A DNA stretch of 64,000 nt from an uncultured virus (IMG/VR IMGVR_UViG_3300021185_002316) (IMGVR_UViG_3300021185_002316), one strand, 5' to 3'; counted from the stretch's first letter, positions 2 to 51,627 are shown. Notes: generated by a model from the letters alone, not told the origin. Numbers and translations are program-made.

Positions 2-3000
2 TATAATCCTATACAATTTTCTTTAAATACATATAATTGTGTTGGAAACAACGCATCCGTCTTTGTAGGTCCTGCGCTTCTTGATGGAGTTTATTATGGA
101 GTATTACCTTCTTTCGATGATAGTACTGTCCAAGTAAATAATATAATAGTTCGCGCATATCCAGATAAAGGGACTACGGGTCAGTTTGAACCAGACTTAG
201 ATAGTACTTTATTTACACCGCTTACCCCAACTTGGGAGCAGTTAACTAATGTAAACGGAACTGAAATAGGAATTGAAGTACCGATTTACGATGTAGGAAC
301 AACGACGTTAGCCACATTTATAATCATAACTTTTGATTATACTAATGTTGCTCAATCTACTGAAACTGAGAATTCAGGTCATAGTTGTACATACTCTTCC
401 TCATTAATTTTTGATAACGCTTGTTTGAGTACACAGGGGTGTTTAGATAATGGGTATTTACCTAGTAATGCATCTGAAACTCCAGGGTTCCCTACAGTAG
501 GGTTTAATCCATCTTCAAGTATTCATGTAGATAGTACAGCTAATTGTAATGTCCCTTATGTATTAGGGTGCATGGATGAGTATTATGCTAAACCTGACGG
601 AGCAGGACGAAGTTTATTAGGAACTTCAAGTGCTCCTGCTATTACGGGGACCTTATCTTTTAATTATAATACTAACCCTTCAGGTACTGATATAAGAGGA
701 GTTGCTTATGACGGATGGAGTACGGCAGCTACAATTAACATGTTTGATAATACTAATGCTGCTAATACAAATCCAGGTGCATTAATAGCAGAGTTTCATC
801 CTTTATATGATGCAAGTTTAGCAACGACAGAAAATCAAGATCCTAATGTTGGGGCAGGTCCTGCTGAAGAATCTTTTAATGGAGCTTACTATGGGTGTTT
901 CCCTGTTGTCACTGGATGCTTAACAGCAAGTGGTCAGTTTAATAAAAATAACTTTTACCATGCTGGTAATATACACCCAATAACAGGAGTTGCTTATAGT
1001 GCAACTGCAGGTAACGCTGGTAACATAGCTGGATTAACATTTGGAGCTAACGAGCCTCAAGACCCAACTATAAACCCTTTAACTTTAGTACCTTATACTG
1101 CTGAAGAAATTAGACAAAATCTTCCGTATTTCTTTAATGTAAATACTCAATCTAATGATGCAGCAACAAATTGTTATAGCAACATATCAGGCTGCACGGA
1201 TCCAACTGCAGCTAATTTTGTTGCGCTTACAAATGATGTAGACGTAGATGTAAATACAGACAACGGTTCTTGTTGTTATGATGAAACAGATATAACAGGC
1301 TTAGGTATTGCGCTTGCTGATAATTTTTATAGTATTCTATATCAAATAGGTAACGATACTCTTCCAAATGGGGGGTATTATAATGACGAACTTACAGAGT
1401 CAACTTTAGACTTTACTCACGCGTCTTGGAGTAACATTACTTATCCATCAGATAGTAGTGCTATGCCTGCAGCAGTAAATGCAACTACATTAACTTCATC
1501 TACTTACACAGGAGATGCAATAATTTGGAGATTAGATAGTAGTGTAGTCGGAAGTGCGTTAACTACGGTAGATAACAGTATAATAAATATAACAAATCTT
1601 AAACTAGCTTTAACTTCTACGCAAAAGTTTAACGTAAAGGTAGTTGCACTTAATAAAGATTTTGTGATTAATAATATTGCAACTAGAGCTGAGTTTGTAG
1701 AATCTCTTGAAAATCCTAATAACAATATTTCTAGACTTATATCTAGCCAAAATTACGAGTCAGGCGCTGTGAATCTTAATTTTGACTCTGCTAACGATTT
1801 GTCTATAGGAACTTTATATAAAGATTTAGTTCTCATTATAACGCATATAAACGAAGACAGTGTAAATTCAAGCGATATTTCTTTTTTAAAGTTTACGATC
1901 GGTAAACGTACTCACGCTGCATTAAGTCTTTCGGCGGGGCTTGTTAATCTGCTAGATGATCTTGCTAACTTTCCTAGTACACTATCTGGTTATACTGCAA
2001 CGGTAAAGAATAGTTTAGGAGCTACAATATCTACTGTAACAGAAAATACTGCTACCCAAAATTTAGGTATTGTTTTACCTATTTATAAATATGATACATC
2101 CGCAGCTAATGCAAACGCTTACGGTGCTTACGATCCAACATACTCGAACCTTAGCACTCACAGTAATGCAACTAATTTTGTAGATCCTAATTTAGGTACA
2201 GAAGTACATTTTAGTTTAAATTACCTTGCTGTAGATGGTTCTACAGTTTGTACTGGAGCTTCTACAGGAATTGAGTTTAATTTTCCGATTGACTTTACAA
2301 ATACATCAATTAATTACGGATGTTCTAATAATACTTATTTACAATATTACCTTAATAATTATTTAGGTAACACATCAGCTATAACTAATTACACTTATAC
2401 TGCTGGAATTGGAGGATCTGTAACTATACCAAATGGAGATTGTCAAAATACGGCGTCTGCAGGATGTACAGATGATAATTATTTAGGAGCATACCCAGAT
2501 AAAGAACAGATAGGAACTGTTTCTTTAGATGCTAATAATGAAATAAGTCAAATTACTACACCATTTATTCTTAATCAATTTGGATACTTGGGTGTTGCTG
2601 GATTTAATAGTCCAACTTATACTGGATCTTCTTTCCCTAACGTAGCAGTAAATATTTCAAATAGTTCGCAATGTGGGGACGAGATTATTTTTGGATGTTT
2701 AATTGATACTTTTGCTGAGTACTGGGGAGCAACTACAATTTCTGGATCGCACACGCTTTATGGAGTCAATGAAAGCCAAGGTAATTTTACAGGAGAAGCA
2801 GGAACTTCTAATCTTTCTTTTGCAAATGTTTCTGAAGTTCATAATGTACCTGGATATGCAGACCACGCTTTATTAGCTGGTTGTGGTGATGCAACAGTAG
2901 CTGTAATAGGGTGTGCAACAGAAAATCAATCAGTTACTGCAGTTGTACCAGACAGTGGTACGACAACAAGTGGAAGTGCAGGAACTTCAGTAATAGGTGT

Positions 3001-5272
3001 TAATAGTAATGTGATATTCACAAGCACTACTACTACTTCAAATGTTTCTTATGGTACTTATGATTCTAACGTTAATGTTATTGGTTTAAATGCTTGTGGA
3101 GGAATTGGTGGATGTACAGACTTTGGTTATTTAGAATATTACTCTACACCTGTAGCTACTATTTCAGACACCGAAGTTGTTACTCCAATTAGTGAGTGTG
3201 AAACTCCTGTTATTGTAGGGTGTACTGATAACGCTTACGTTGGATACGATGCAACTGCAACAATACATGATGGATCTTTTTGCGGTAACCCAATTGTTGA
3301 CGGATGTACCGATTCTTCTTATTGTGAATATTATACAGAAGCACAAACACTTTACAATGTACATACCGGTGAAACAACTATAGTGTACCCTAACAATGAT
3401 ACAGGCTCGTGTAGCAGTGTACAAGGTTGTATGAATCCTAACTATTTAGAAGCTTACGGGGAAAATTACAATAGTGCATTATTAGCAAACATTCATGAGT
3501 ATGAAATAACTGGTCCGATAGTTTCAGAATGTAATAGTTTAACTGGTCAATACTCTTTAGATGAATATACTGCAGCAAACCCTGGGTTATCTCAAACACA
3601 AATAAACAATAACTATTATAATGATGGGTGTAGCATTCCTATGGTGATTGGTTGTACAGATCCAAATGCTGTAAATTATAACTCATTAGCAAATGTATCG
3701 TCTATTAATGCTGAGGGAGTTGTAAATGCTTCTTGTATAGCTAAAACTGAAGGATGTACAGATTCAACAGCATTTAATTACGACTCTGAAGCCACTTTTG
3801 ATGATGGTAGTTGTATAACTCTTGTCGAAGGGTGTACAGATAATACTGCTTTTAATTACAATTCAAATGCAAACACTAATGACGGATCTTGTATTCCTGT
3901 AATAGAAGGTTGTATTACAGACACTTTTATTTTAAACAATACTACGTATACTACAGCAGCTACATCGTTAGAAGCAGAGTATGATCCAATAACAAATACG
4001 GATATAACTGCTGCAAATACTCATTCATCTGCATTGTGTTTCCCAGAAATACTTGGGTGTACAGATGAAACAGCTGTAAACTTTAATAACTACATTACAG
4101 AGACTCCAAATATAGGGCAAGCTTTTGTGACTGATCTTAACGCAGCCTTTACAAATGTAAATACAGACGACGGATCATGCCTTGCTTCTGTAGTAGGTTG
4201 TATGGATCCTTGCGCAAATAATTACGAGTCTAACGCTACCGTATCTGGTAGTTGTACTTACACCCCAGGATGTACTGATGCTAACGCAATAAACTACAAT
4301 CCTGAAGCTAATCAGCTTGATACTACGTGTACGTACTGCGAAGACTGGTCTTTAGTACGTGCCGATTCTTCTTATGTTACAGTTGTAGATAACACTTATT
4401 TTATAAATAATGTGAGTTCTTCTGATGGTAGCATAACAATAAATCCAGTATCTGCGAATGGAGTTACAAATAATTATGTAATTAAATGGACAGGTGTTGC
4501 AAATGACGGAAGCGTTGTAGATATTGCTGACAATACTACTACAGTAACAGGGTTAGCTCCAGGAGAGTATACGTTTACTATATATACTGATAATCCTGCT
4601 TGCGCTCCTAGCCCAACAGTTCCTGTATCTAATGTAGTTAACACTCACATACATCAAACAGATTTATCGTGTGCGTATAATACAGAAGACACTGAGTCTT
4701 ACTCAACTTTACCGTTAGCTATTAGTAGTACAGTAACAGTAGGTACGGATAATTATGGGTGTACAGATAGTGAAGGATATGAGCCAGGATCTTATAGTCC
4801 GGCAGGAGAGTTAACTATACATGCTTTGGGAGGTATTAATAATACGTATGCACCAAGCACAGAAGAGATTCAGTTGCCAACAAATCCTGCTATCAACTAT
4901 GATGGTACAGCAGGTATAGATGATGATTCATGTAATTATTCAGGATGTACTGACCCAGACGCTTTAAATTATGATAGTTTAGCTAATGTTAATGACAATT
5001 CTTGTCAGTACATTGTAGGGTGTACTGCAGTGTCTGCGTGTAATTATCATCCAGCAGCTGTTCTTGCAGGACCTTGTGAATATGCAGCTGTATTTAGAAA
5101 CTGCTTAGGAGAGTGTGTAGACCCAGATACTGGAGTTAGTTTAGCTACAGCCGATAATCCATTAGGAGAGTCTGAGACCAACCCAGGTTTATGTCCAAAC
5201 CAAGTATTAGGTATATGTTTAGACCCAACAGCAATTAACTTTACACCTATCGGTGATAACATAATAATATAA
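2..5272 (+). CDS. Giant Cys-rich repeat protein (GC-T/M-D-x-x-A-x-N-Y/F...DDGSC repeats), probable fibre or surface virion protein; 5'-truncated
   Basis: The frame is open from position 2 (YNPIQFSLNTYNCVGNN...), so the TTG at 425 is not the true start. Many GCTD-type units and one SprB-like repeat near 4424-4603. Confidence 0.75.
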   Translation, partial: YNPIQFSLNTYNCVGNNASVFVGPALLDGVYYGVLPSFDDSTVQVNNIIVRAYPDKGTTGQFEPDLDSTLFTPLTPTWEQLTNVNGTEIGIEVPIYDVGTTTLATFIIITFDYTNVAQSTETENSGHSCTYSSSLIFDNACLSTQGCLDNGYLPSNASETPGFPTVGFNPSSSIHVDSTANCNVPYVLGCMDEYYAKPDGAGRSLLGTSSAPAITGTLSFNYNTNPSGTDIRGVAYDGWSTAATINMFDNTNAANTNPGALIAEFHPLYDASLATTENQDPNVGAGPAEESFNGAYYGCFPVVTGCLTASGQFNKNNFYHAGNIHPITGVAYSATAGNAGNIAGLTFGANEPQDPTINPLTLVPYTAEEIRQNLPYFFNVNTQSNDAATNCYSNISGCTDPTAANFVALTNDVDVDVNTDNGSCCYDETDITGLGIALADNFYSILYQIGNDTLPNGGYYNDELTESTLDFTHASWSNITYPSDSSAMPAAVNATTLTSSTYTGDAIIWRLDSSVVGSALTTVDNSIINITNLKLALTSTQKFNVKVVALNKDFVINNIATRAEFVESLENPNNNISRLISSQNYESGAVNLNFDSANDLSIGTLYKDLVLIITHINEDSVNSSDISFLKFTIGKRTHAALSLSAGLVNLLDDLANFPSTLSGYTATVKNSLGATISTVTENTATQNLGIVLPIYKYDTSAANANAYGAYDPTYSNLSTHSNATNFVDPNLGTEVHFSLNYLAVDGSTVCTGASTGIEFNFPIDFTNTSINYGCSNNTYLQYYLNNYLGNTSAITNYTYTAGIGGSVTIPNGDCQNTASAGCTDDNYLGAYPDKEQIGTVSLDANNEISQITTPFILNQFGYLGVAGFNSPTYTGSSFPNVAVNISNSSQCGDEIIFGCLIDTFAEYWGATTISGSHTLYGVNESQGNFTGEAGTSNLSFANVSEVHNVPGYADHALLAGCGDATVAVIGCATENQSVTAVVPDSGTTTSGSAGTSVIGVNSNVIFTSTTTTSNVSYGTYDSNVNVIGLNACGGIGGCTDFGYLEYYSTPVATISDTEVVTPISECETPVIVGCTDNAYVGYDATATIHDGSFCGNPIVDGCTDSSYCEYYTEAQTLYNVHTGETTIVYPNNDTGSCSSVQGCMNPNYLEAYGENYNSALLANIHEYEITGPIVSECNSLTGQYSLDEYTAANPGLSQTQINNNYYNDGCSIPMVIGCTDPNAVNYNSLANVSSINAEGVVNASCIAKTEGCTDSTAFNYDSEATFDDGSCITLVEGCTDNTAFNYNSNANTNDGSCIPVIEGCITDTFILNNTTYTTAATSLEAEYDPITNTDITAANTHSSALCFPEILGCTDETAVNFNNYITETPNIGQAFVTDLNAAFTNVNTDDGSCLASVVGCMDPCANNYESNATVSGSCTYTPGCTDANAINYNPEANQLDTTCTYCEDWSLVRADSSYVTVVDNTYFINNVSSSDGSITINPVSANGVTNNYVIKWTGVANDGSVVDIADNTTTVTGLAPGEYTFTIYTDNPACAPSPTVPVSNVVNTHIHQTDLSCAYNTEDTESYSTLPLAISSTVTVGTDNYGCTDSEGYEPGSYSPAGELTIHALGGINNTYAPSTEEIQLPTNPAINYDGTAGIDDDSCNYSGCTDPDALNYDSLANVNDNSCQYIVGCTAVSACNYHPAAVLAGPCEYAAVFRNCLGECVDPDTGVSLATADNPLGESETNPGLCPNQVLGICLDPTAINFTPIGDNIII

Positions 5273-8136: not shown

Positions 8137-8349
8137 ATGGAAATATTTAAAGATAATAATAATTGGAATGAAAAAGCAATAGTAGGGTTTGTAGCTTTTG
8201 CTATTATGTGCTTAATAATGATTGCAGACCTTGTAACAGGTTGGGTTGGAACTGACTTAGTTATAAACGAGTTTGTGTATGACTCATTTGTATGGGTTGT
8301 ACTTGGATCATTTGGAATTTCAGGAGTAGAAAAATTTGCAAAGAAATGA
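8137..8349 (+). CDS. Small 2-TM membrane protein (holin-like)
   Basis: 70 aa, two hydrophobic segments, basic C-terminus (EKFAKK). Confidence 0.6.
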   Translation: MEIFKDNNNWNEKAIVGFVAFAIMCLIMIADLVTGWVGTDLVINEFVYDSFVWVVLGSFGISGVEKFAKK

Positions 8350-9404
8350 AAAAATTAATATTTGTTTTATTAGTCTTTACATCTTTAACTGCTTCAGCTC
8401 AGTTAAACCTTTTAAGGTTTGCTACGTTTTACGCTAGCTACACTACTAACACTCCACAAATAGGTGCACCTAGTTTTATGGTTCAAGGTACAGAGCCTGA
8501 CAATCCTTACGACTTTGTACCTAACTTTGTAGATGGAGAGTTAATAGAGCTTACACCACAATACTCACCTAATGTTATTCTTACACTAGGTATACGAAAG
8601 ATAGCAAGATTTGACTATCAAATTAAACAAAACAACTTTTATACAGGTAACGAGCATCAGGCAACTGACTATGCTACTATATCTAACGCTCCTGGACTTG
8701 AGTATCTATTCCAGTATTCTTTTGTAAGAAACAATGGATTAGAAATAGCTCAACAAGAATACAATGTACGATACATATCTAACATGTATACAGCTAAAGC
8801 TAACTATGTTAATAATGAATTAATAGATTTAAAGTATTCTTTGGGCGAGGTTAGGTTACGCAAAAGTTTTGGTGGTTTAGACTTTACTTTTGGCGTAGCC
8901 CATCGTTCTCATCCTGTTTATGGATTTAATCCTATCGAAGATGTAGACATGGAATGGGAAGAGTTTGCTATAAGTCAAAAATACTTTAGGTTTAATGATG
9001 GTGTTTGGTTGAGATTTGATGAAGAAGCTGGAGAAATAGAATGGTTATCTTCTAGTGATAACGAGTTTTACAAATATCATTTTGGAGAGCTAGTTACTAA
9101 CTACAATGAAAGTGTGTTAAAAGATATAGGACTTCAGCAAGAAGTATCTGCAGTACTAGGATTAGATTATTATTTGTATAGAGATACGTACTGGCTGCAT
9201 GCTTGGGGATCTTTATATCCTTTACATAAAGGTTTAACAGATTTTTCTTATCAAAGAAGCGCGCAAGCAGAATGGGATACTGGTTTAATATTTGGAGTGA
9301 ATCTTAACAGACATCTTAGTTTGTTTGTTGAAGGTAAACACTTAAAGTTTTGGGGCGTACCATCTTATGAATTAAAAACAGGAATAAATTATTTAATATT
9401 TTAA
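8346..9404 (+). CDS. Exported protein, probable outer-membrane beta-barrel
   Basis: True start is probably the ATG at 8346 (ATGA overlap with the previous stop). Signal peptide MKKLIFVLLVFTSLTASA|Q, aromatic alternating beta-strands, and C-terminal beta-signal-like KTGINYLIF. Confidence 0.65.
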   Translation: MKKLIFVLLVFTSLTASAQLNLLRFATFYASYTTNTPQIGAPSFMVQGTEPDNPYDFVPNFVDGELIELTPQYSPNVILTLGIRKIARFDYQIKQNNFYTGNEHQATDYATISNAPGLEYLFQYSFVRNNGLEIAQQEYNVRYISNMYTAKANYVNNELIDLKYSLGEVRLRKSFGGLDFTFGVAHRSHPVYGFNPIEDVDMEWEEFAISQKYFRFNDGVWLRFDEEAGEIEWLSSSDNEFYKYHFGELVTNYNESVLKDIGLQQEVSAVLGLDYYLYRDTYWLHAWGSLYPLHKGLTDFSYQRSAQAEWDTGLIFGVNLNRHLSLFVEGKHLKFWGVPSYELKTGINYLIF

Positions 9405-9406
9405 CT

Positions 9407-9685
9407 ATGGCAAAAGAACTTAATGAGGATACAGCAGTACAGGTAAGTATAAAAACTTTAGCAAGTATCGCATTTTTAATAGCTACATTAGTCGGTATGT
9501 GGTTTACGCTTCAAGCAGATATAGCAGAAGCTAAGTTATTGCCTGAACCACAAGATCCTGAGATTACTCGTATGGAGTTTGATATGAAAGATCAGTTGAT
9601 TCGTCAAACTATTATGTCTACACAAGAAGATGTGACAGAAATAAAAGACGATCTAAAAGCAATTAAACAAAAATTGTATGAATAA
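9407..9685 (+). CDS. Single-TM coiled-coil membrane protein (paralog of 11053-11379)
   Basis: N-terminal TM ending GMWFTLQADI, then a coiled coil. Confidence 0.65.
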   Translation: MAKELNEDTAVQVSIKTLASIAFLIATLVGMWFTLQADIAEAKLLPEPQDPEITRMEFDMKDQLIRQTIMSTQEDVTEIKDDLKAIKQKLYE

Positions 9686-10043
9686 GTTATTAATATTTTT
9701 ACTACCTTTAACAGTTGCAGCTCAAGAGTTTGTTAGTTCTAGTTCATTTGAGTCTAAGACTGCAAAAGGAACAGTGGTAATTGAGTTCTGGGCTGAGTGG
9801 AACGCAGGTAATCAAGTAGATTTTTTACCCTCGTTAAAAGATTGCGAGTCATATAGGCTATGCATAGTTAAAGGAGCTGACGTTCAAAAAAAGTATAAAG
9901 TAACAGCTATACCTACAGTTATAATATTTGACAACGGTGTAGAACAAGAAAGGTTTAATCCTAACATAATGATGCAGCTTGTTGCTACTAAAAAGAAAGT
10001 ACAAAAATCAATAGATAACATAACCCTAAGTAAATTTCAGTAA
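9678..10043 (+). CDS. Exported thioredoxin-fold protein lacking CxxC
   Basis: Signal peptide ...TVAA|Q. VVIEFWAEWNAGN aligns to thioredoxin DFWAxWCxxC. The cis-Pro motif YKVTAIPTVIIFDNG is present. Confidence 0.75.
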   Translation: MNKLLIFLLPLTVAAQEFVSSSSFESKTAKGTVVIEFWAEWNAGNQVDFLPSLKDCESYRLCIVKGADVQKKYKVTAIPTVIIFDNGVEQERFNPNIMMQLVATKKKVQKSIDNITLSKFQ

Positions 10044-10645
10044 TGAACAAATTAAAATTAAACTTAAAAAGATTTCCTAAATCAAGCGTTGCATATATAA
10101 TGTTTTGGTTTCTTATGGTAGCTATGTATATAGTGGGCTTTATATTTTTATCTTTTAGTTCTAGAGCTCAAAACTTTGATAACTACAAAAAGATCGTAGT
10201 TACAGAGTCAGATATGATGGATGGTATGTTTTGGTCTATAGGTAATTGTGCCTTAGATACAGTAATATTTAACGGTACTACTACAGTAGACCAAATTGTT
10301 TATTTACCTAAACAATACAGAGTATTAATGCGTGACTTTAATGGTGACGCTTGGGGTGGTGCTGTTATGTATATAATAGATTATCCTGATTTAGATAGTG
10401 CTCTTACTTTAGAGTATAAACATCCTTCAGCTAGTGTTGTAGTACACGACTGTGGTTGCACAGACTCTACATACTTTGAGCAAAATCTTGAAGCGTTTGA
10501 GTTATCTGTACAAGAACTAAACAACGAGCCTTTTACCCCTACTACATACTACGATATGCTAGGTAGAGTAGTAACACCGACTAAAGGTATGTATATAGCA
10601 AGCGATGGTATAACACGTAAAAAAATATTTTTAATAAATAAATAA
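10043..10645 (+). CDS. Exported protein with T9SS (Por) C-terminal sorting-domain-like tail
   Basis: Hydrophobic N-terminus ending SSRA|Q; DFNGDAWGG and CGCTD motifs; C-terminal YYDMLGRVV...KGMYI....RKKIFLINK. Confidence 0.6.
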   Translation: MNKLKLNLKRFPKSSVAYIMFWFLMVAMYIVGFIFLSFSSRAQNFDNYKKIVVTESDMMDGMFWSIGNCALDTVIFNGTTTVDQIVYLPKQYRVLMRDFNGDAWGGAVMYIIDYPDLDSALTLEYKHPSASVVVHDCGCTDSTYFEQNLEAFELSVQELNNEPFTPTTYYDMLGRVVTPTKGMYIASDGITRKKIFLINK

Positions 10646-10653
10646 ATTAAATA

Positions 10654-11052
10654 ATGGCAACAGTTACAACAAAATTAACAATTACGTCTCAAGACTTAGT
10701 TTCAAATGCTTTAAGCATAGCTTTAACTACTAAAGCTACTGTAGCTCATACTACCGGGTTGGCGAGAGCGCCTATAACATCTACTTTAAAAACTACTGCT
10801 GCAGGGCAAGTAACTCTTTATACAGCTAACGACTTTTCGTCTGGAGCTTACATGTATATTAAAAATACAGATGTTACTTCTTTAGATTATATCTATATTT
10901 ATGCAGATACTTCTGCTGATGATCCTGTATTATTAAAATTAGCAGGTGGTGAGTTTGCATTTTTACCTATGAGTTCAGATACTACGTTAAAAGCATACAC
11001 AGCAACTAGTGGTACAATTGTAGAATGGATGGTATTTGGAACAGACGCATAA
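10654..11052 (+). CDS. Hypothetical beta-rich protein, probably virion-associated
   Basis: 132 aa, Thr/Ala-rich, YIKNTD and LAGGEFAFLP motifs; late-operon context. Confidence 0.6.
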   Translation: MATVTTKLTITSQDLVSNALSIALTTKATVAHTTGLARAPITSTLKTTAAGQVTLYTANDFSSGAYMYIKNTDVTSLDYIYIYADTSADDPVLLKLAGGEFAFLPMSSDTTLKAYTATSGTIVEWMVFGTDA

Positions 11053-11379
11053 ATGGATGAAGCTCTTGACATAAACGAGAACTCTAAAGTACAGTTAGAT
11101 GTAAAAAGTCTAATAGGTATTGTAGCTGGTATAGTTTCTCTTGCAGGTATATGGTTTACATTGCGAGCAGAGATTTCTCAGTTACAATTAGATGTAGTAC
11201 GCATGCAAGATAACGTAGAGCTTAACCACGAGTTTAGAGTTAAATGGCCTAGAGGTGAAATGGGTGCTTTACCTGATGACGCTAAGCAAGATTTAAAAAT
11301 AGAGTACCTACAAAAAGAAGTAGACTACTTACGTAAAGTAGTTAAAAATTTAGAAATTAAACAAGCAAAAACTGAGTAA
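11053..11379 (+). CDS. Single-TM coiled-coil membrane protein (paralog of 9407-9685)
   Basis: INENSKVQLDVKSL..TM..GIWFTLRAEI followed by a coiled coil; adjacent to the endolysin. Confidence 0.65.
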   Translation: MDEALDINENSKVQLDVKSLIGIVAGIVSLAGIWFTLRAEISQLQLDVVRMQDNVELNHEFRVKWPRGEMGALPDDAKQDLKIEYLQKEVDYLRKVVKNLEIKQAKTE

Positions 11380-11834
11380 TGAAATTAAGTAAAAACTTTG
11401 CGTTGTCTGAAATAACACACAGCAACACAGCTAAAAGATTAGGGATAGATAATGAGCCGACTGAAACGCACTTACAAAATATGCAGCATCTTGTGGACAA
11501 TCTTATACAGCCTCTTCGTGACTCTATTGGTCCTATCAGGATCAGTAGCGGTTATCGTAACCCGTCGCTCAATCGTGCTATTGGGGGCAGCGTTTCTTCG
11601 CAGCATTGCAAAGGTGAGGCATTGGACATCCAGTTTTGGCAGATGGGGAAGATGATGAACGAACTTATTTATGAGTGGATTTTAGATTCAGGTTTAGAGT
11701 TTGATCAGATGATAAATGAATTTGATTTTGCTTGGATACATATATCTTTAAAAGCTAAAGATAATAGAAAGCAAGTACTCGAAGCCTACAAAAATGAGGA
11801 TGGAGATACTAAATACAGATACGCAGACGTATGA
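11379..11834 (+). CDS. Endolysin, peptidase M15A family
   Basis: SSGYR..LN..IGG...SQH..GEALD and WIHIS zinc-binding motifs. Confidence 0.88.
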   Translation: MKLSKNFALSEITHSNTAKRLGIDNEPTETHLQNMQHLVDNLIQPLRDSIGPIRISSGYRNPSLNRAIGGSVSSQHCKGEALDIQFWQMGKMMNELIYEWILDSGLEFDQMINEFDFAWIHISLKAKDNRKQVLEAYKNEDGDTKYRYADV

Positions 11835-12217
11835 GTAAGTTATTAGATTTTTTAGGCGGTGGAGTAGTTAAGCAGGTCGGTGATGTGCTTGATAACTTAA
11901 CTACGTCTAAAGAAGAAAAACTAGAAGCTCAACGTAAGATACAGGAGGTTCTTATGCAGGCTGAGTCGCAGGCTCAAGAACAAGTAACTAAGCGTTGGGA
12001 GGCTGACATGAAATCTGATAACTGGCTTAGTAAAAATATTAGACCGTTGATATGTATATTTCTGACAGCTATGTTTGTTGTTATTTCACTTTTTGATGGA
12101 AACGCTGGTGGATTCCAAATTGCTCCAGCTTATATACCAATATATCAAACCTTATTAATAACTGTTTATGGAGCTTACTTTGCAGGAAGATCTATAGAAA
12201 AGATAAAGAAAAAATAA
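11831..12217 (+). CDS. Holin (3TM / GTA-holin-like)
   Basis: RWEADMKSDNWLSKNIRP, two TM helices, YFAGRSIEK; immediately downstream of the endolysin. Confidence 0.75.
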   Translation: MSKLLDFLGGGVVKQVGDVLDNLTTSKEEKLEAQRKIQEVLMQAESQAQEQVTKRWEADMKSDNWLSKNIRPLICIFLTAMFVVISLFDGNAGGFQIAPAYIPIYQTLLITVYGAYFAGRSIEKIKKK

Positions 12218-45592: not shown

Positions 45593-45622
45593 AAAAAAGG
45601 GGGCACCTAAGCCCCTTTTTTT
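45593..45622. terminator. Bidirectional intrinsic terminator between the convergent gene blocks
   Basis: AAAAAAGGGGGC-ACCTAA-GCCCCTTTTTTT: GC stem flanked by an A-tract and a T-tract. Confidence 0.85.
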
Positions 45623-46029
45623 CTATTATCAAAATTCTTATGATTATTTAATACGTATTGAATAAACATTAAATTACACATAGCATGCCCAATATGAGAC
45701 TTGCCACTTTCAGAATCTAAATCTTCTCCTTTTTGAAAGGCGATAATATGTCTAAACAAGCTCCCTAATAACTCAGTTATAAGTTGCCCTTTCTTCCAAT
45801 TATCTCTAGAATATTTAGTTTCTCCAAACATCAAGACTTCAACAAGGGGTTCAAGTGATTCGAAATCAATTTGATCCCATTCTAGTTTACCCTTATTGTG
45901 TCTATCAGCATACCGTTGTTCATCTGGCCACTCTTTTGATCGGTTTATTACACCTGGTTTATCTACGTAAGCCACAGTTTTTTCTGTAACTAGATCGTAT
46001 TTATATCTTACAAAGTTTTCTTTTGACAT
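45607..46029 (-). CDS. dATP/dGTP diphosphohydrolase domain protein (DUF5664-like)
   Basis: N.GKL.W......L..L..VL.FG..KY..DNW.KG...SL.RH.......D.ESG..H..HA.CN. Confidence 0.8.
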   Translation of the reverse strand: MSKENFVRYKYDLVTEKTVAYVDKPGVINRSKEWPDEQRYADRHNKGKLEWDQIDFESLEPLVEVLMFGETKYSRDNWKKGQLITELLGSLFRHIIAFQKGEDLDSESGKSHIGHAMCNLMFIQYVLNNHKNFDNRKKGA

Positions 46030-47593: not shown

Positions 47594-48763
47594 TTACAAA
47601 GCATTCAGCTCAGCGACTTCCTTGTCAACTTGAGCTTTGCTTTCTAATTTTACCTTTACTGCTTCTGCCCTCATTTCTTGCCACTCGGCATCAGTCATAG
47701 CTGCATAGGTTGAACTGTGATAAATCGATCCATTTACTCCTGCAAGAGAAGAATGAACAAAGTACTGCTTGCAACGTATAGCACCATCTACATCATCAGG
47801 CACTGCACCAATATGCATAGGGTCCGCAAATATATTGTGGATCTCACCTGAATAGAACGCGATATACTTAAGGCCACCAATATGAAGACCTTTTACACAA
47901 GACTGAAAGTCATTGGTATTAACTTGGCTCCATGAAGCTAAGCTGTGTGTACAACCAACTTTGATAAAATGCCCTGGATTAGCAAATCCATTGTCGCCAA
48001 TACAAGAGAAGCTATCTCCACCTGCACCCATCATTGCAGGTTCAAATAAGCGGTCTTCTACGTGCTCAGGAAGGCCATCTCCTTGTATTTCACCAGTATC
48101 AGGATTGAACGTACGAGCGTAACGATCTACTTGCTCCCCTGTTTCTGTGTCATACTTATGCATAACCTCTTTAGATACTTTGTAACCATTAAGAAGACCC
48201 TCACGAGTAATCTTCATTTGATACATAGTAGCACGAGCAGTAGCAATTGCTTCACTTAGACCTTGCTCTTCCATGAGCTCTTCTTTGAGTTTAGGGTGCA
48301 CATACTGCATATTAACAAAGTTAAAGAAGCGATTAGAGAAATCTACTCCTCTATCACATTCAGCTTTCTTTGCTAATATAGGATTACGCAACCATCTGGT
48401 CCACATTTTAACAAGTGGTTCAAATGATACGCCTTTATCAATAGACTCAAATATTCTATCTACCAATGCTTGAGGCATAGGAATAGAAGAAACAACTCCT
48501 TCACTCTTAAGGAAGAACTCGCCTGTATTCTTGTTTACATGAATGTAAGCACATTTTGACTCTACTGTTTTAGTATAGTCTACAACACATAGCTCTGCAA
48601 ACTCACTCATAATGGTTTTGTAGTCGTCCATGGTTGTTACTGAAGATGCTTCGTCAGCAAGTTGCATCATTGATGCATAAGTTTCTTCAGTGTACTGCAC
48701 TGCAAATGGTGTTTCACCATAAGAGCCGCAGATTTTGTCGTCGATAACGTTAATTGTGATCAT
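47594..48763 (-). CDS. rIIB: rIIB-like protein
   Basis: PLVKMW.RWL.NP, F.F, IT.EG...GYK.V, C..GLH.G...Y; directly downstream of the rIIA-like gene. Confidence 0.75.
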   Translation of the reverse strand: MITINVIDDKICGSYGETPFAVQYTEETYASMMQLADEASSVTTMDDYKTIMSEFAELCVVDYTKTVESKCAYIHVNKNTGEFFLKSEGVVSSIPMPQALVDRIFESIDKGVSFEPLVKMWTRWLRNPILAKKAECDRGVDFSNRFFNFVNMQYVHPKLKEELMEEQGLSEAIATARATMYQMKITREGLLNGYKVSKEVMHKYDTETGEQVDRYARTFNPDTGEIQGDGLPEHVEDRLFEPAMMGAGGDSFSCIGDNGFANPGHFIKVGCTHSLASWSQVNTNDFQSCVKGLHIGGLKYIAFYSGEIHNIFADPMHIGAVPDDVDGAIRCKQYFVHSSLAGVNGSIYHSSTYAAMTDAEWQEMRAEAVKVKLESKAQVDKEVAELNAL

Positions 48764-48788
48764 GTGTTAATTGATATTAAATTGGTTA

Positions 48789-48820
48789 CTAATTTACGAA
48801 AATTTAAGAAGATGCGCAAC
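48789..48820 (-). promoter_or_regulatory. Possible Bacteroidota sigma-70-type promoter upstream of rIIB
   Basis: Minus strand GTTG-N20-TAAATTAG, a variant of TTTG-N19-21-TAnnTTTG; overlaps a hairpin at 48806-48839. Confidence 0.4.
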
Positions 48821-51627
48821 TATTGTGCGCTATCTTCTTCTAATTCAGGGGTTTCTGGTAAAACATCAGTGACGTCCCACTCATCTTTCCCTTTGCATTT
48901 CAAATAAGAGATTATTTCTTTCTCTAATTCTGGGCTAAGAGCTTTCTCTCTACTTATACCCTCTATAGCAGAAAGTAAATGCTTAGTGTCTTCTGAAAAT
49001 TCTAGTATGTTATTATACATATCTAAAATATTTAGATTAACTGCAACAGTTTCTCCTATGTCTGAAAGAACAAATAACTCAGTACTCTTCGCACTAATTA
49101 GTTCAGCTGCATTAGCTTCACCTTCTACTTGCTTGCAATATATTTGAAAATCCATAAGCTTTTGAGCTTGTGCAAACACATCAGTTCCGTCTAGATTTCT
49201 ATGACGATAATACTCAAAATTAGATTCTCTAGCTTTTAAGACTAAATCGTAGATCTCTTTAAGCCCAGGATTAATGTTAATAAAACTCGATAAGAATCCA
49301 GCATCAGAAATTTTGTCTAATTTTGTCGCTGTAAACCACTTAATCATTGATTCATCCATAGTATATCCTCCTTTATCATTTACTTGTAAGAAGAATTCAC
49401 TAATGTGTTTACAATTTGGATTCTTCTTGATGTATTTAACTTTATTTTCACTTACTCTGATTAACTGTGGTGTATCCCATGCTCGAACTGCTTTGGCAGT
49501 CCAGTCATGAAATTTACCTTTGTCTTCCCCATATGATATTCTAAGAGAAACGGCTGGTTCTTCATAATAAAATACTGGCTGATTTTGACAGCTATCCCAA
49601 GAAGACCAACTGTTATCAGGGTAAACTTCTTTAAAAGTAGGAGCTTGCACATGCATAACTTTAGCTGCTAGGTGCATTAGATCTTCATCCGCTTTAGTGC
49701 AATAATAAATACGAGACTCGCTTTCCATAAGATCTTTGGCCTTTGGCTCTATCTTGTCAAGGGTGTACTGTTTATCATCATTACGACTTTTGTCAAATCT
49801 AAGAGAATATGCAACCATACGTTTCTCTATTTCACGACGCTCTGCAGGAGAGATGTCGTCAAACTTAGATACTTCCATAGCTTGCTCTTCTTCTGTAGTG
49901 AACTCCGTAGTCCAGTCTTCAGGTACTACTACATCATCATAAGAATGATAAAACTCAGACTCTTTAAAGTATTTAAGTACAGCTGCACGTTTACGTGAGA
50001 CTCTACTTTTCTCTTTAATTAGTGCAAGCTTAGCTTCTCCTTGAGCTATAGCAATTTTACCGTCAAACTTAGCATCTAAGTCTTCTAGAGTAAATACTGA
50101 AGGACGACATTCTTGGTCTCCACCTTTAATAAGATATGCATCTGTCAATCTATTGAAAGATACATTCTCTTTAAAGTAGAAATGCATAGGATCTATACCG
50201 CCCCACACTACTAATTTGTCATCTCTTACAGATTTAAACTTACCTTTCTCAACGTCATATAAAAGCTTAGTAATCTTAAATCCTTCGAATAATTTAGTTG
50301 GTATAGCGTATCTAATTCTCTTGTCTCCAGGGAACGTAGGGCTAATCATGTCTTTATCTATAATATTAGATAATTTGTTTAGAACACGATTCTCACTACG
50401 AGCACCACTAACAAGCGCACGAGTCTTAGAAATCCAGTCAACAAAATCTGTAGTGTTTAGCTCTTCCTGAACTACATTAGTAGCCTCTATCGCAGCTTTC
50501 TTGATAATACCCTGAACATAGTTTTTAGTAGCTTCATTCCATATTACCTTCTCACGCGACGGAGTTACGTCGACACCTTCTTGTATAACTGTTTCTACGC
50601 CATTGTCATCTACTACAACTTGCCTCATAGGACATTTAAATGCAATAGCGCCATACAGTTGCTCCATTTCTAACTCTCGGAAATCTATGTGACCATAGTT
50701 AATACCTGTTTCAGCTTTAGGATTCTTTACTACAAGTATATGCGGTTTAGAATACGTATAGCCATCACTGATAATAAGATGATCTGAAGAGTATATTACT
50801 TCATTTTTAAAGTCAACTTCTTCGGTCCATCCACTTTCGTGTAAAACTGTAAAGTTAACATTGTTCAAATAATTTAATTGCTCTTCTACAGCTTCCTTGT
50901 ACTTACGTCTATTATGTTTCTTGGTTCTGAAGCTTACTTCCGTGTAATTCTTAGAGTCCGATTCTTCATAATATACTTTAGTACCATCTGAGAATGTAAC
51001 AAATGGGTTTTGTTTACCTGCTTCTACATTAAAAGCTGGTATAATGAAATCTGTCTTGTAATTGTAGCAATTACATTTAAATCTCATTCCGTTGTAGACA
51101 GTTTCTATAGTGTAGAAATCTACACCTGTAGACAATGCTGCTTTAGCACCTAAGCCAAACGCACCAAAGTTCTCTGATGTGTTACGCTTAGTAGAATATC
51201 CTAATTCTAGGACACCTTCTAGTCTGCGTGCACCAATACCTACGCCGTAGTCCATTATTGCAAATGTATCACAAAATCCTGTACCTTCTTTTTCAGTATA
51301 AGTCAAGTCTACAGTGTTCTTTACATGATCTAAGGAAGCAACATTGTAATACTCTATATTAAAGTTACTGTCTTCGTACTGTGCGCCTCCACGCGTAATG
51401 TAATAGTCTTCTGGCTTCTTCTCTCCGCTTAGTATCTCTAGAGCTATCTCCTTTTCCCTCTGTGAATCACAAGCATTAGTTGTAAGTTCACGTATGGTAC
51501 TCGGAATTGGCATAGAGTACTGTGTTGATTGAAGAATGTCAAAGACCATTCTCTTTGCTCCTTCGTTGATCTTTTTCTCGATCCCTTTAGAGCCTTTAAT
51601 CTGTGTGTCAATAGTTTTTATACTCAT
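48820..51627 (-). CDS. rIIA: rIIA-like protein with N-terminal GHKL/HATPase domain
   Basis: IRELTTNACDS, DYGVG, YSTK..T....G.FGLG.K, VTPSRE. Confidence 0.8.
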   Translation of the reverse strand: MSIKTIDTQIKGSKGIEKKINEGAKRMVFDILQSTQYSMPIPSTIRELTTNACDSQREKEIALEILSGEKKPEDYYITRGGAQYEDSNFNIEYYNVASLDHVKNTVDLTYTEKEGTGFCDTFAIMDYGVGIGARRLEGVLELGYSTKRNTSENFGAFGLGAKAALSTGVDFYTIETVYNGMRFKCNCYNYKTDFIIPAFNVEAGKQNPFVTFSDGTKVYYEESDSKNYTEVSFRTKKHNRRKYKEAVEEQLNYLNNVNFTVLHESGWTEEVDFKNEVIYSSDHLIISDGYTYSKPHILVVKNPKAETGINYGHIDFRELEMEQLYGAIAFKCPMRQVVVDDNGVETVIQEGVDVTPSREKVIWNEATKNYVQGIIKKAAIEATNVVQEELNTTDFVDWISKTRALVSGARSENRVLNKLSNIIDKDMISPTFPGDKRIRYAIPTKLFEGFKITKLLYDVEKGKFKSVRDDKLVVWGGIDPMHFYFKENVSFNRLTDAYLIKGGDQECRPSVFTLEDLDAKFDGKIAIAQGEAKLALIKEKSRVSRKRAAVLKYFKESEFYHSYDDVVVPEDWTTEFTTEEEQAMEVSKFDDISPAERREIEKRMVAYSLRFDKSRNDDKQYTLDKIEPKAKDLMESESRIYYCTKADEDLMHLAAKVMHVQAPTFKEVYPDNSWSSWDSCQNQPVFYYEEPAVSLRISYGEDKGKFHDWTAKAVRAWDTPQLIRVSENKVKYIKKNPNCKHISEFFLQVNDKGGYTMDESMIKWFTATKLDKISDAGFLSSFININPGLKEIYDLVLKARESNFEYYRHRNLDGTDVFAQAQKLMDFQIYCKQVEGEANAAELISAKSTELFVLSDIGETVAVNLNILDMYNNILEFSEDTKHLLSAIEGISREKALSPELEKEIISYLKCKGKDEWDVTDVLPETPELEEDSAQ

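Follow-up and report, generated by a model that had tools for sequence, protein, structure and literature searches.

A conserved phage trio of a predicted outer-membrane β-barrel, a membrane anchor and a cysteine-less thioredoxin fold as a candidate outer-membrane arm of lysis in marine crAss-like phages

The current study concerns a block of tightly packed genes (positions 8137-12217) within a stretch of 64,000 nucleotides (nt), one strand, from the uncultured virus IMGVR_UViG_3300021185_002316; the whole of this stretch is referred to here as the window. Three genes of the block, encoding a predicted 352-amino-acid (aa) β-barrel, a 92-aa membrane anchor and a 121-aa thioredoxin fold devoid of redox cysteines, form one conserved unit, whereas the rest of the block is variable. 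We propose, with a probability of roughly 0.4, that the block is an extended lysis cassette and that this trio would serve as a spanin-like outer-membrane-disruption arm for Bacteroidota hosts, a function in lysis that is predicted only. Little is understood of how Bacteroidota phages breach the outer membrane when an infection ends. Spanins of the classical Rz/Rz1 type have been described mainly for phages of Proteobacteria, and in the literature searched, subscription journals and supplements aside, no paper was found that describes phage lysis cassettes combining a barrel with an anchor and a thioredoxin. For Bacteroidetes phages, one survey, in the portion of it available to us, lists only unimolecular spanins (PMC12596118). 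A conserved, abundant and phage-only trio that is joined to lysis genes is a concrete candidate for the outer-membrane step in Bacteroidota. Even if the trio acts otherwise, it would still represent a widespread viral investment in envelope remodelling of ocean Flavobacteriia-type hosts.

The three core genes lie on the + strand and encode, in order, the exported protein predicted to form a 12-stranded outer-membrane β-barrel (8346-9404), the type-II inner-membrane protein, which is i-spanin-like (9407-9685), and the exported thioredoxin fold, with WNxxN in place of its redox cysteines (9678-10043). They belong to a single translationally coupled run that leads from a 70-aa gene (8137-8349) into an endolysin of the Peptidase_M15_3 family (11379-11834; Pfam E 2e-16, phrog_894 E 2.3e-36) and a holin of the GTA_holin_3TM family (11831-12217; Pfam E 1.2e-7, phrog_3427 E 8.8e-29). 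Between the thioredoxin and endolysin genes are those of a 200-aa secreted or anchored protein with a C-terminal tag of about 33 aa (10043-10645), a 132-aa protein (10654-11052) and a 108-aa N-terminally anchored coiled-coil protein (11053-11379). Every open reading frame (ORF) of the block is on the + strand, separated from the next by 0-8 nt or overlapping it by 1-8 nt; the overlap is 8 nt between the 92-aa gene and the 121-aa gene and 1 nt between the latter and the 200-aa gene. For the barrel gene, the real start is the ATG at 8346 (MKKLIF...), which shares an ATGA with the 70-aa stop codon, and not the ATG at 8292, which would give the longest ORF. With the sole exception of the 132-aa ORF, all members of the block are conserved as proteins in many independent viral contigs. 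A preliminary description of the window, made from the sequence alone, had likewise reported tight packing with partial overlaps, and the six ORFs it listed in this block all exist, among them a protein with two transmembrane (TM) segments, which corresponds to the 70-aa protein with its one long and one shorter hydrophobic stretch. The 132-aa ORF had been left off that list.

Along the + strand of the window, the tail-fibre genes are followed by this block with its M15 endolysin and holin, then by a crAss-type Ring-2 gene and by giant virion-type ORFs, while the replication block is on the - strand. The Ring-2 protein, encoded from position 12217, belongs to a crAss-type virion family (CrAss_Ring_2, PF25702, Pfam E 1.8e-39), and its tblastn matches comprise 50 phage records, all below 60% identity, from Flavobacterium (29), uncultured crAss-like phages (18), Cellulophaga (2) and an entry named 'Bacteriophage' (1). 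Because of these matches, and because the closest compared contig, G001, is the nearest relative (27% of sampled words in common with the window), we assign the window to an uncultured marine crAss-like phage, whose host is probably of the Flavobacteriia type.

The conservation of the trio was assessed in 86 related loci, in which ORFs were called and classified with iterated hidden Markov models (HMMs). A barrel ORF is present in 84 of these loci, the anchor family in 76 and the thioredoxin in 75; the holin family occurs in 53, the M15 lysin in 52, the 70-aa gene in 36, the 200-aa gene in 29 and the 132-aa gene in 4. When only the 69 loci with at least 3.5 kb of sequence downstream of the barrel are considered, the thioredoxin is found near the barrel in 64, and in 61 of those 64 the anchor gene lies no more than 30 nt upstream of it. 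Searches of the whole contigs of the five exceptions located the thioredoxin elsewhere in four, the fifth contig being 25% complete. Since 64 nearby and four distant cases add up, the barrel and the anchor-thioredoxin pair share a contig in 68/69 loci, down to a barrel identity of 36%. The pair is also linked to lysis genes: among the 63 loci extending at least 2.5 kb beyond the thioredoxin, an M15 endolysin is found within 2.5 kb downstream in 46 and a holin nearby in 47. The block of G001 runs in the order barrel, 92-aa gene, thioredoxin, 132-aa gene, endolysin and holin; no 70-, 200- or 108-aa gene is present within the 65 kb of it compared, and the 92-aa protein is the sole anchor-type protein found there. 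The preliminary description had suggested an undescribed multi-gene trans-envelope system and had named neighbourhood conservation in marine phage contigs as a check. This holds for the barrel, anchor and thioredoxin as one unit, but not for the full set of six listed genes, which are not co-conserved, as G001 illustrates, nor for the proposed route through the type IX secretion system (T9SS), which gained no support here (see below). In a phage-isolate collection, from which records close to the window may be absent, neither blastn of 8137-12217 nor tblastn of the barrel or of the 92-aa protein gave a match, and tblastn of the thioredoxin gave one weak match.

The 352-aa protein begins with a predicted signal peptide (MKKLIFVLLVFTSLTASA, followed by Q) and ends in ...GINYLIF, which has the form of a β-signal with a terminal aromatic residue. 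Neither G346 nor N348 varies among the relatives, while Y349 is shared by 44/45 sequences and I351 and F352 by 43/45 each. An AlphaFold2 model built from the 45-sequence alignment (mean predicted local distance difference test, pLDDT, of 73; predicted template-modelling score, pTM, of 0.63) has 12 long strands and several loop helices. Foldseek returned 69 matches to this model in the PDB at E<=1e-3, and those listed are all outer-membrane barrels. In a VIA-align comparison with 48,161 chains, the top ranks are 12-stranded barrels with Z scores of 11-15 over 163-206 aligned residues: EstA (Z 15.3, 193 aligned residues, root-mean-square deviation 3.8 Å), KdgM (14.7), NalP (14.3), NanC (14.0), AaaA (13.9), Tsx (13.7), AIDA-I (12.6), FapF (12.5), LpxR (12.2) and OMPLA (11.1). 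The outer-membrane β-barrel anticipated in the preliminary description, which had noted both the signal peptide and the GINYLIF ending, is thus upheld by the strand count, by the Foldseek matches listed and by VIA-align scores of Z 12-15, and we predict that the 352-aa protein forms a closed 12-stranded barrel. Its invariant residues are mostly polar and, by strand alternation, would face the lumen (R128, R142, R170, D179, R187, H189, E266, S268, H285, D311, E329 and N348), and hypervariable stretches at about 38-75, 198-237 and 303-308 form its putative outer loops. AlphaFold2 fails to place the most conserved segment, 82-121 (pLDDT <50 for 87-113), which strand parity would put on the periplasmic side as a turn or plug, and this segment is a plausible docking site. 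We also considered an outer-membrane lipid hydrolase with a His-x-Ser arrangement of the OMPLA/PagL kind; this idea was dropped because the pair in question is not invariant, with H186 in 39/45 sequences (87%) and S188 in 33/45 (73%), and hydrophobic replacements in some members.

In fold and strand number, the predicted barrel resembles the known 12-stranded outer-membrane barrels, including the β-domains of the autotransporters EstA and NalP, KdgM/NanC, Tsx, FapF, OMPLA and LpxR. In contrast to these, it has no passenger domain, and neither the window protein nor 19 further full-length members has a Pfam match. The barrel has no match in Pfam, PHROG or NCBIfam. A large protein collection contains 178 homologues at E<=1e-3, and of the 120 listed, none carries a Pfam domain and their contigs are phage-sized. 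Within IMG/VR, a relative of the barrel is encoded in 554/600 pattern-matched viral stretches. A profile search of 1.84 billion representatives yielded 356 matches at E<=1e-3, mostly fragments, and when 20 of these were scanned against Pfam, 0/19 full-length members matched a family. The 30 Atlas clusters nearest to the barrel include none with a common Pfam family, and the three listed ones are all viral. We therefore regard the barrel as a phage-only family. Barrel genes do occur in other phages, such as the porin or autotransporter β-domain proteins of uncultured phages in BFVD and the outer membrane protein of Aeromonas phage phiAS5. One BFVD entry, A0A516LKJ4, is a likely member of the present family (E 1.4e-21, TM-score 0.56-0.58, 25% identity), whereas the other BFVD phage barrels are weak matches (TM-score 0.17-0.35) and belong to cellular families. 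A 314-aa metagenome protein, P0211, joins an FGE-sulfatase domain (37-206) to the last approximately 100 positions of the barrel profile and may be a chimera or misassembly.

The 121-aa protein matches the Pfam family Thioredoxin (PF00085) with a score of 26.9 bits, the cut-off being 23.5 (E 5.2e-6). It has WNAGN at the position of WCGPC, so that both active-site cysteines are replaced and no CxxC redox motif is present. W41, N42, N45, P79 and T80 are invariant in 42 sequences of the family, and at least 1441 homologous clusters exist in metagenomes. Together with its signal peptide, which in this clade contains no Cys, these features agree with the exported pseudo-thioredoxin of the preliminary description. 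Redox-inactive thioredoxin-fold proteins are known that likewise keep the fold and the cis-proline (P79, T80 here), but the present family differs from them in that CxxC has become an invariant WNxxN and in being exported, phage-encoded and fixed beside a membrane anchor. A glutamine follows the signal peptide in the barrel (Q19, 45/45), in the 200-aa protein (Q43, 19/19) and in the thioredoxin (Q16, at least 90%). This corresponds to the Bacteroidetes Q-rule for substrates of signal peptidase I, as given in the portions available to us of two reports (PMC5837995, PMC10653852), and the available part of a third records the rule in genes of Porphyromonas phages (PMC10367356). Because this residue is nearly invariant, it speaks for genuine export signals that are adapted to a Bacteroidota host.

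The 92-aa protein consists of a short cytoplasmic N-terminus, one TM helix, a linker containing proline and a heptad helix of about 35 aa. Both it and the 108-aa protein have a single N-terminal hydrophobic helix and a heptad a/d pattern in the C-terminal approximately 35 residues, consistent with a short coiled coil, and both thus present the type-II topology, N-terminal TM helix and periplasmic coiled coil of an i-spanin. They are the paired TM coiled-coil proteins of the preliminary description. Over its N-terminal 43 residues, the 92-aa protein has 42% identity with the 108-aa protein (E 7e-12), by which measure the two are paralogues, and both match phrog_20984 (annotated 'unknown function'), the 92-aa protein weakly and the 108-aa protein at E 6.2e-13. 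Homologues of the 108-aa protein were found by tblastn in four records only, from pelagiphages and one fosmid. It is 39.6% identical (E 1e-10) to gp15 of Pelagibacter phage HTVC027P, which is encoded two genes upstream of an M15 endolysin (gp17) that is 42% identical to the endolysin of the window. A second homologue, gp53 of HTVC121P, lies beside a protein 26% identical to the window holin and directly before DNA maturase B, which we take to be the position at which T7 keeps its spanin genes. This homology and gene context place the 108-aa protein in a lysis cassette that pelagiphages possess as well, in which it is the coiled-coil component anchored in the membrane. The second anchor of the preliminary description is real, but belongs to this ordinary lysis cassette. 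The pelagiphage anchors are homologous to the 108-aa protein, with which the 92-aa protein has its N-terminal 43 residues in common, but they differ in what accompanies them: an ORF of 71-74 aa follows the anchor, no thioredoxin gene occurs in the pelagiphage stretches read, and the barrel has no tblastn match in the phage-isolate collection. These small ORFs (2901-3125 in L098, from HTVC027P; 2884-3099 in L099, from HTVC121P) have a hydrophobic N-terminus and two or three Cys but no canonical lipobox, and may encode an unrecognised partner of the 108-aa homologue.

Based upon these features, a working model of the extended lysis cassette can be outlined. The M15 endolysin and the holin would be its standard parts. 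The 92-aa protein would be situated in the inner membrane and extend its short coiled coil into the periplasm, to which the 121-aa protein, a thioredoxin fold that is redox-dead, would be exported as an adaptor; the 352-aa protein would form a 12-stranded barrel within the outer membrane. The trio would thereby link both membranes and, once the holin and endolysin have removed the cell wall, would destabilise the outer membrane, which is the task of spanins in phages of Proteobacteria. That the three proteins bind one another and act in lysis is something we infer only, whereas the order and coupling of their genes, the export signals, the co-conservation and the association with lysis genes, along with the fold predictions, were observed here. 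When all + strand ORFs between 7600 and 13000 with a length of 25 aa or more were scanned for a relaxed lipobox, none matched, and because of this the region holds no recognisable two-component o-spanin or unimolecular spanin. The absence of a lipoprotein o-spanin had been noted in the preliminary description as well, and of the functional options offered there, the context therefore favours non-canonical outer-membrane disruption. For the same reason, the trio would work like a spanin without being one, as a protein set outside the spanin family.

Several observations speak for such a role. The 8-nt overlap of the anchor gene with the gene of an exported protein mirrors the overlapped architecture of spanin genes, the family of the 108-aa paralogue sits in lysis cassettes, and in an unrelated phage, the Flavobacterium myophage immuto, the annotated endolysin and holin genes have a homologue of the 70-aa gene directly upstream of them (48.5% identity). 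As far as the available portion of a survey of two-component spanins describes them (lambda Rz/Rz1; Kongari et al. 2018, PMC6139136), the trio shares with these the N-terminal anchor and periplasmic coiled coil, the overlapping gene of an exported partner and the position beside endolysin and holin genes, and as a set it would likewise span the periplasm. Unlike Rz/Rz1, the exported partner is a thioredoxin fold with no lipobox, an integral barrel of 12 strands takes the place of the small lipoprotein in the outer membrane, the components number three and not two, the coiled coil is short, and neither Rz nor Rz1 was found to be related in sequence. A further parallel is Disruptin (gp28 of phage phiKT), which, according to the part available to us of its description, disrupts the outer membrane of its host by non-spanin means in a spanin-less phage, but is a single small cationic peptide and not a three-protein set with a barrel (bioRxiv 10.1101/515445).

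The same proposal also faces considerable difficulties. The defining feature of an o-spanin, an outer-membrane lipoprotein, is absent, and the periplasmic part of the 92-aa protein amounts to only about 55 residues. Rz-type i-spanins have a much longer periplasmic part. With its rigid barrel, conserved polar lumen and hypervariable loops, the predicted structure of the 352-aa protein looks more like that of a channel or surface protein than of a membrane-fusion subunit. The genomic linkage is imperfect as well: in 14 of the 63 loci neither an M15 endolysin nor a holin is near the pair, one such locus running straight into the large terminase and another into virion proteins, and in contig G002, the one inspected of the four with a distant thioredoxin, the anchor and thioredoxin genes are still adjacent, but approximately 8 kb separate them from the barrel, and they are encoded on the opposite strand. 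Finally, the pairwise distances of barrel, anchor, thioredoxin and lysin are correlated (0.72-0.86), a result in which co-evolution and shared descent are not separated.

The principal competing explanation centres upon the 200-aa protein and its C-terminus. The AlphaFold2 model of this protein (pLDDT 72.8) has an N-terminal hydrophobic helix, an eight-stranded β-sandwich at about 45-138, a disordered linker at 141-157 and, within the last approximately 33 residues, three short, well-predicted strands (168-197). Structural searches, made mainly with residues 6-138, gave only generic matches to the β-sandwich (Z<=5.7), and the one T9SS substrate chain among them (Z 4.2) aligned to the N-terminal domain, not to the tail. 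The preliminary description had assigned the protein a T9SS tail, which is not supported: a T9SS sorting domain was matched by 0/19 family members in Pfam (E<=1), by 0/10 proteins in NCBIfam (E<=1) and not by the window protein, and only the short three-stranded tail was predicted, for which reasons we set T9SS routing aside. According to the available part of its structural description, the type A C-terminal domain (CTD) of T9SS substrates is a seven-stranded 3+4 β-sandwich (Mizgalska et al. 2024, PMC11285876), whereas the tag of the window protein has about 33 residues, three predicted strands and no HMM match. A type A CTD has about 70-90 residues. In loci that branch more deeply, the barrel is followed by another kind of secreted protein, with a Cys-rich N-terminus bearing a DGxxDCxDxSDE-like motif, acidic D/T/E/I/Y repeats and a C-terminus of the same kind as that of the 200-aa protein (for example L074 7028-7795, L076 7011-7766 and about 28 other loci). 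We take this motif to be LDL-receptor class A-like (LDLa-like). The tag pattern, D-x-L-G-R-x-V ... G-x-Y-I ... K, presumably recalls the last motifs of type A CTDs. Aligned with hhalign, the tails of the two families match with 92.8% probability (E 3.9e-7, 23 columns), and by this comparison a C-terminal tag of about 33 aa is common to two secreted families beside the barrel. A strict tag pattern and a tag HMM (E<=1e-3) both undercount the LDLa-type proteins, so that only the profile-profile comparison links the families. The 200-aa family occurs in 29-31 loci and the LDLa-like family in 30, never together. About 60/84 barrel loci thus have one or the other and about 24 have neither. The barrel family and the tag both provide new handles for the annotation of marine viromes.

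Given these tagged neighbours, the block could instead be a module for secretion and surface display, in which the barrel would be an outer-membrane translocator or anchor acting in trans, like an autotransporter or the FapF barrel, and the tag-bearing secreted proteins its cargo. The surface of the infected cell would thereby be remodelled, for example for superinfection exclusion, for receptor masking or so that progeny are kept off debris. This is the strongest of the rivals, although we consider it distinctly less probable than a role in lysis. EstA, NalP, AaaA, AIDA-I and FapF are among the best structural matches of the barrel, two unrelated secreted families next to it bear a common tag and are never found in the same locus, its outer loops are hypervariable, and further envelope-directed accessory genes (SNase, PAP2) cluster at the same place in relatives. 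However, the trio persists in the approximately 24 loci that have no tag-bearing gene, among them G001 and the loci in which barrel, anchor, thioredoxin and lysin follow one another; the block sits in the late operon of a lytic phage; the anchor and thioredoxin are left without a role; and the tag signal is short and weak, because the tag HMM recovered only one LDLa-type protein. A more elaborate version would make the block a minimal virus-owned secretion system with its own sorting tag, a β-hairpin by which cargo of the β-sandwich type or of the LDLa-like Cys-rich and acidic-repeat type would be recognised in the periplasm, threaded through or docked onto the barrel and shown on the Bacteroidota cell surface, with the anchor and thioredoxin as inner-membrane and periplasmic handling parts. 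Such a system strikes us as rather doubtful.

Alternatively, the block might contain no single system, the interval between fibre and lysis genes being a hot spot for unrelated exported 'moron' genes that serve separate roles. The set of genes found between barrel and lysin indeed varies widely among relatives, the 70-, 200-, 132- and 108-aa genes are each absent from many loci, and the holin is evidently shuffled independently, its distances being uncorrelated with those of its neighbours (0.16-0.21). We nonetheless deem this unlikely, as it does not readily accommodate the presence of the barrel and the pair on the same contig in nearly every locus, even at 36% barrel identity, or an anchor and a thioredoxin that are almost always overlapping neighbours (61/64). 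The fold matches to KdgM, NanC and Tsx and the mostly polar, lumen-facing invariant residues would also suit a substrate-specific outer-membrane channel for the uptake or release of a small solute during infection, such as a nucleoside or oligosaccharide. Yet similarity of fold among 12-stranded barrels is generic, the gene is found in a late, lysis-adjacent block and not among early or metabolic genes, and the co-conserved anchor and thioredoxin would go unexplained, all of which makes a channel function improbable in our view. The preliminary description had also raised folding of the Cys-rich tail fibre, and with this or another virion-assembly role the adjacency of the thioredoxin fold to Cys-rich fibre genes would be in keeping. 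Virions of tailed phages assemble in the cytoplasm, however, and because the thioredoxin is exported and both active-site cysteines are missing from all 42 sequences, such a role is very unlikely; the barrel fold, moreover, is that of a membrane protein.

The remaining genes of the block are less consistently associated with the spanin-like trio proposed here. The 70-aa protein ends in EKFAKK, its basic C-terminus, and its sequence is nearly invariant across the clade. It has no match to a holin family (Pfam, PHROG), and its gene lies 3 kb from the lysin in the window. Given its relative in immuto, it is an accessory, lysis-associated protein that is possibly a holin or antiholin-like protein. 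Downstream of the endolysin and holin of immuto (NC_055915.1, L092, 6344-7007), two overlapping genes encode a 116-aa protein, in which an N-terminal anchor is combined with a coiled coil, and a 133-aa protein, which has a signal peptide and a C-terminal TM helix but no lipobox; by their sequence features, these two would make a spanin-like pair lacking a lipoprotein in another Flavobacterium phage. The 132-aa protein is rich in Thr and Ala, with no hydrophobic segment and no family match, and the Atlas clusters nearest to it are viral and unnamed. Its counterpart in G001 is 98% identical, and L090 has two copies of it in tandem; although its gene is located within the block, no observation links it to the envelope set. 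The 200-aa and 108-aa genes are likewise accessory.

Among 94 neighbouring ORFs scanned in relatives, we encountered six SNase-like nucleases, five PAP2 phosphatases and two DUF5675 proteins. The SNase-like genes (119-138 aa) are located inside the cassettes of L047, L048, L056, L075 (7778-8149), L089 and L090. The PAP2-family membrane phosphatases are encoded a few genes after the thioredoxin (L076 9669-10187, L077 9526-10065, L083 11110-11673, L085 9692-10255 and L086 10311-10838) and might modify lipid A or undecaprenyl phosphate. Holins can be swapped even between close relatives: that of G001 (L005, 9791-10213) has 140 aa, as compared to 128 aa in the window, while the flanking lysin and Ring-2 proteins are 93-99% identical. 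Upstream of the block, a tail-fibre ORF (2-5272) exits the 5' end of the window and encodes 1756 aa as an open frame, or 1615 aa from the first TTG, with many Cys-containing repeats of the form GCTD..A.NY; it is 89% identical in G001, whereas the fibre genes that follow it differ. At the start of the - strand block are a T7-lysozyme/amidase-like protein of 140 aa (45607-46029, -; phrog_801 and phrog_2252) and rIIB-like and rIIA-like proteins (47594-51627, -; phrog_609 and phrog_612).

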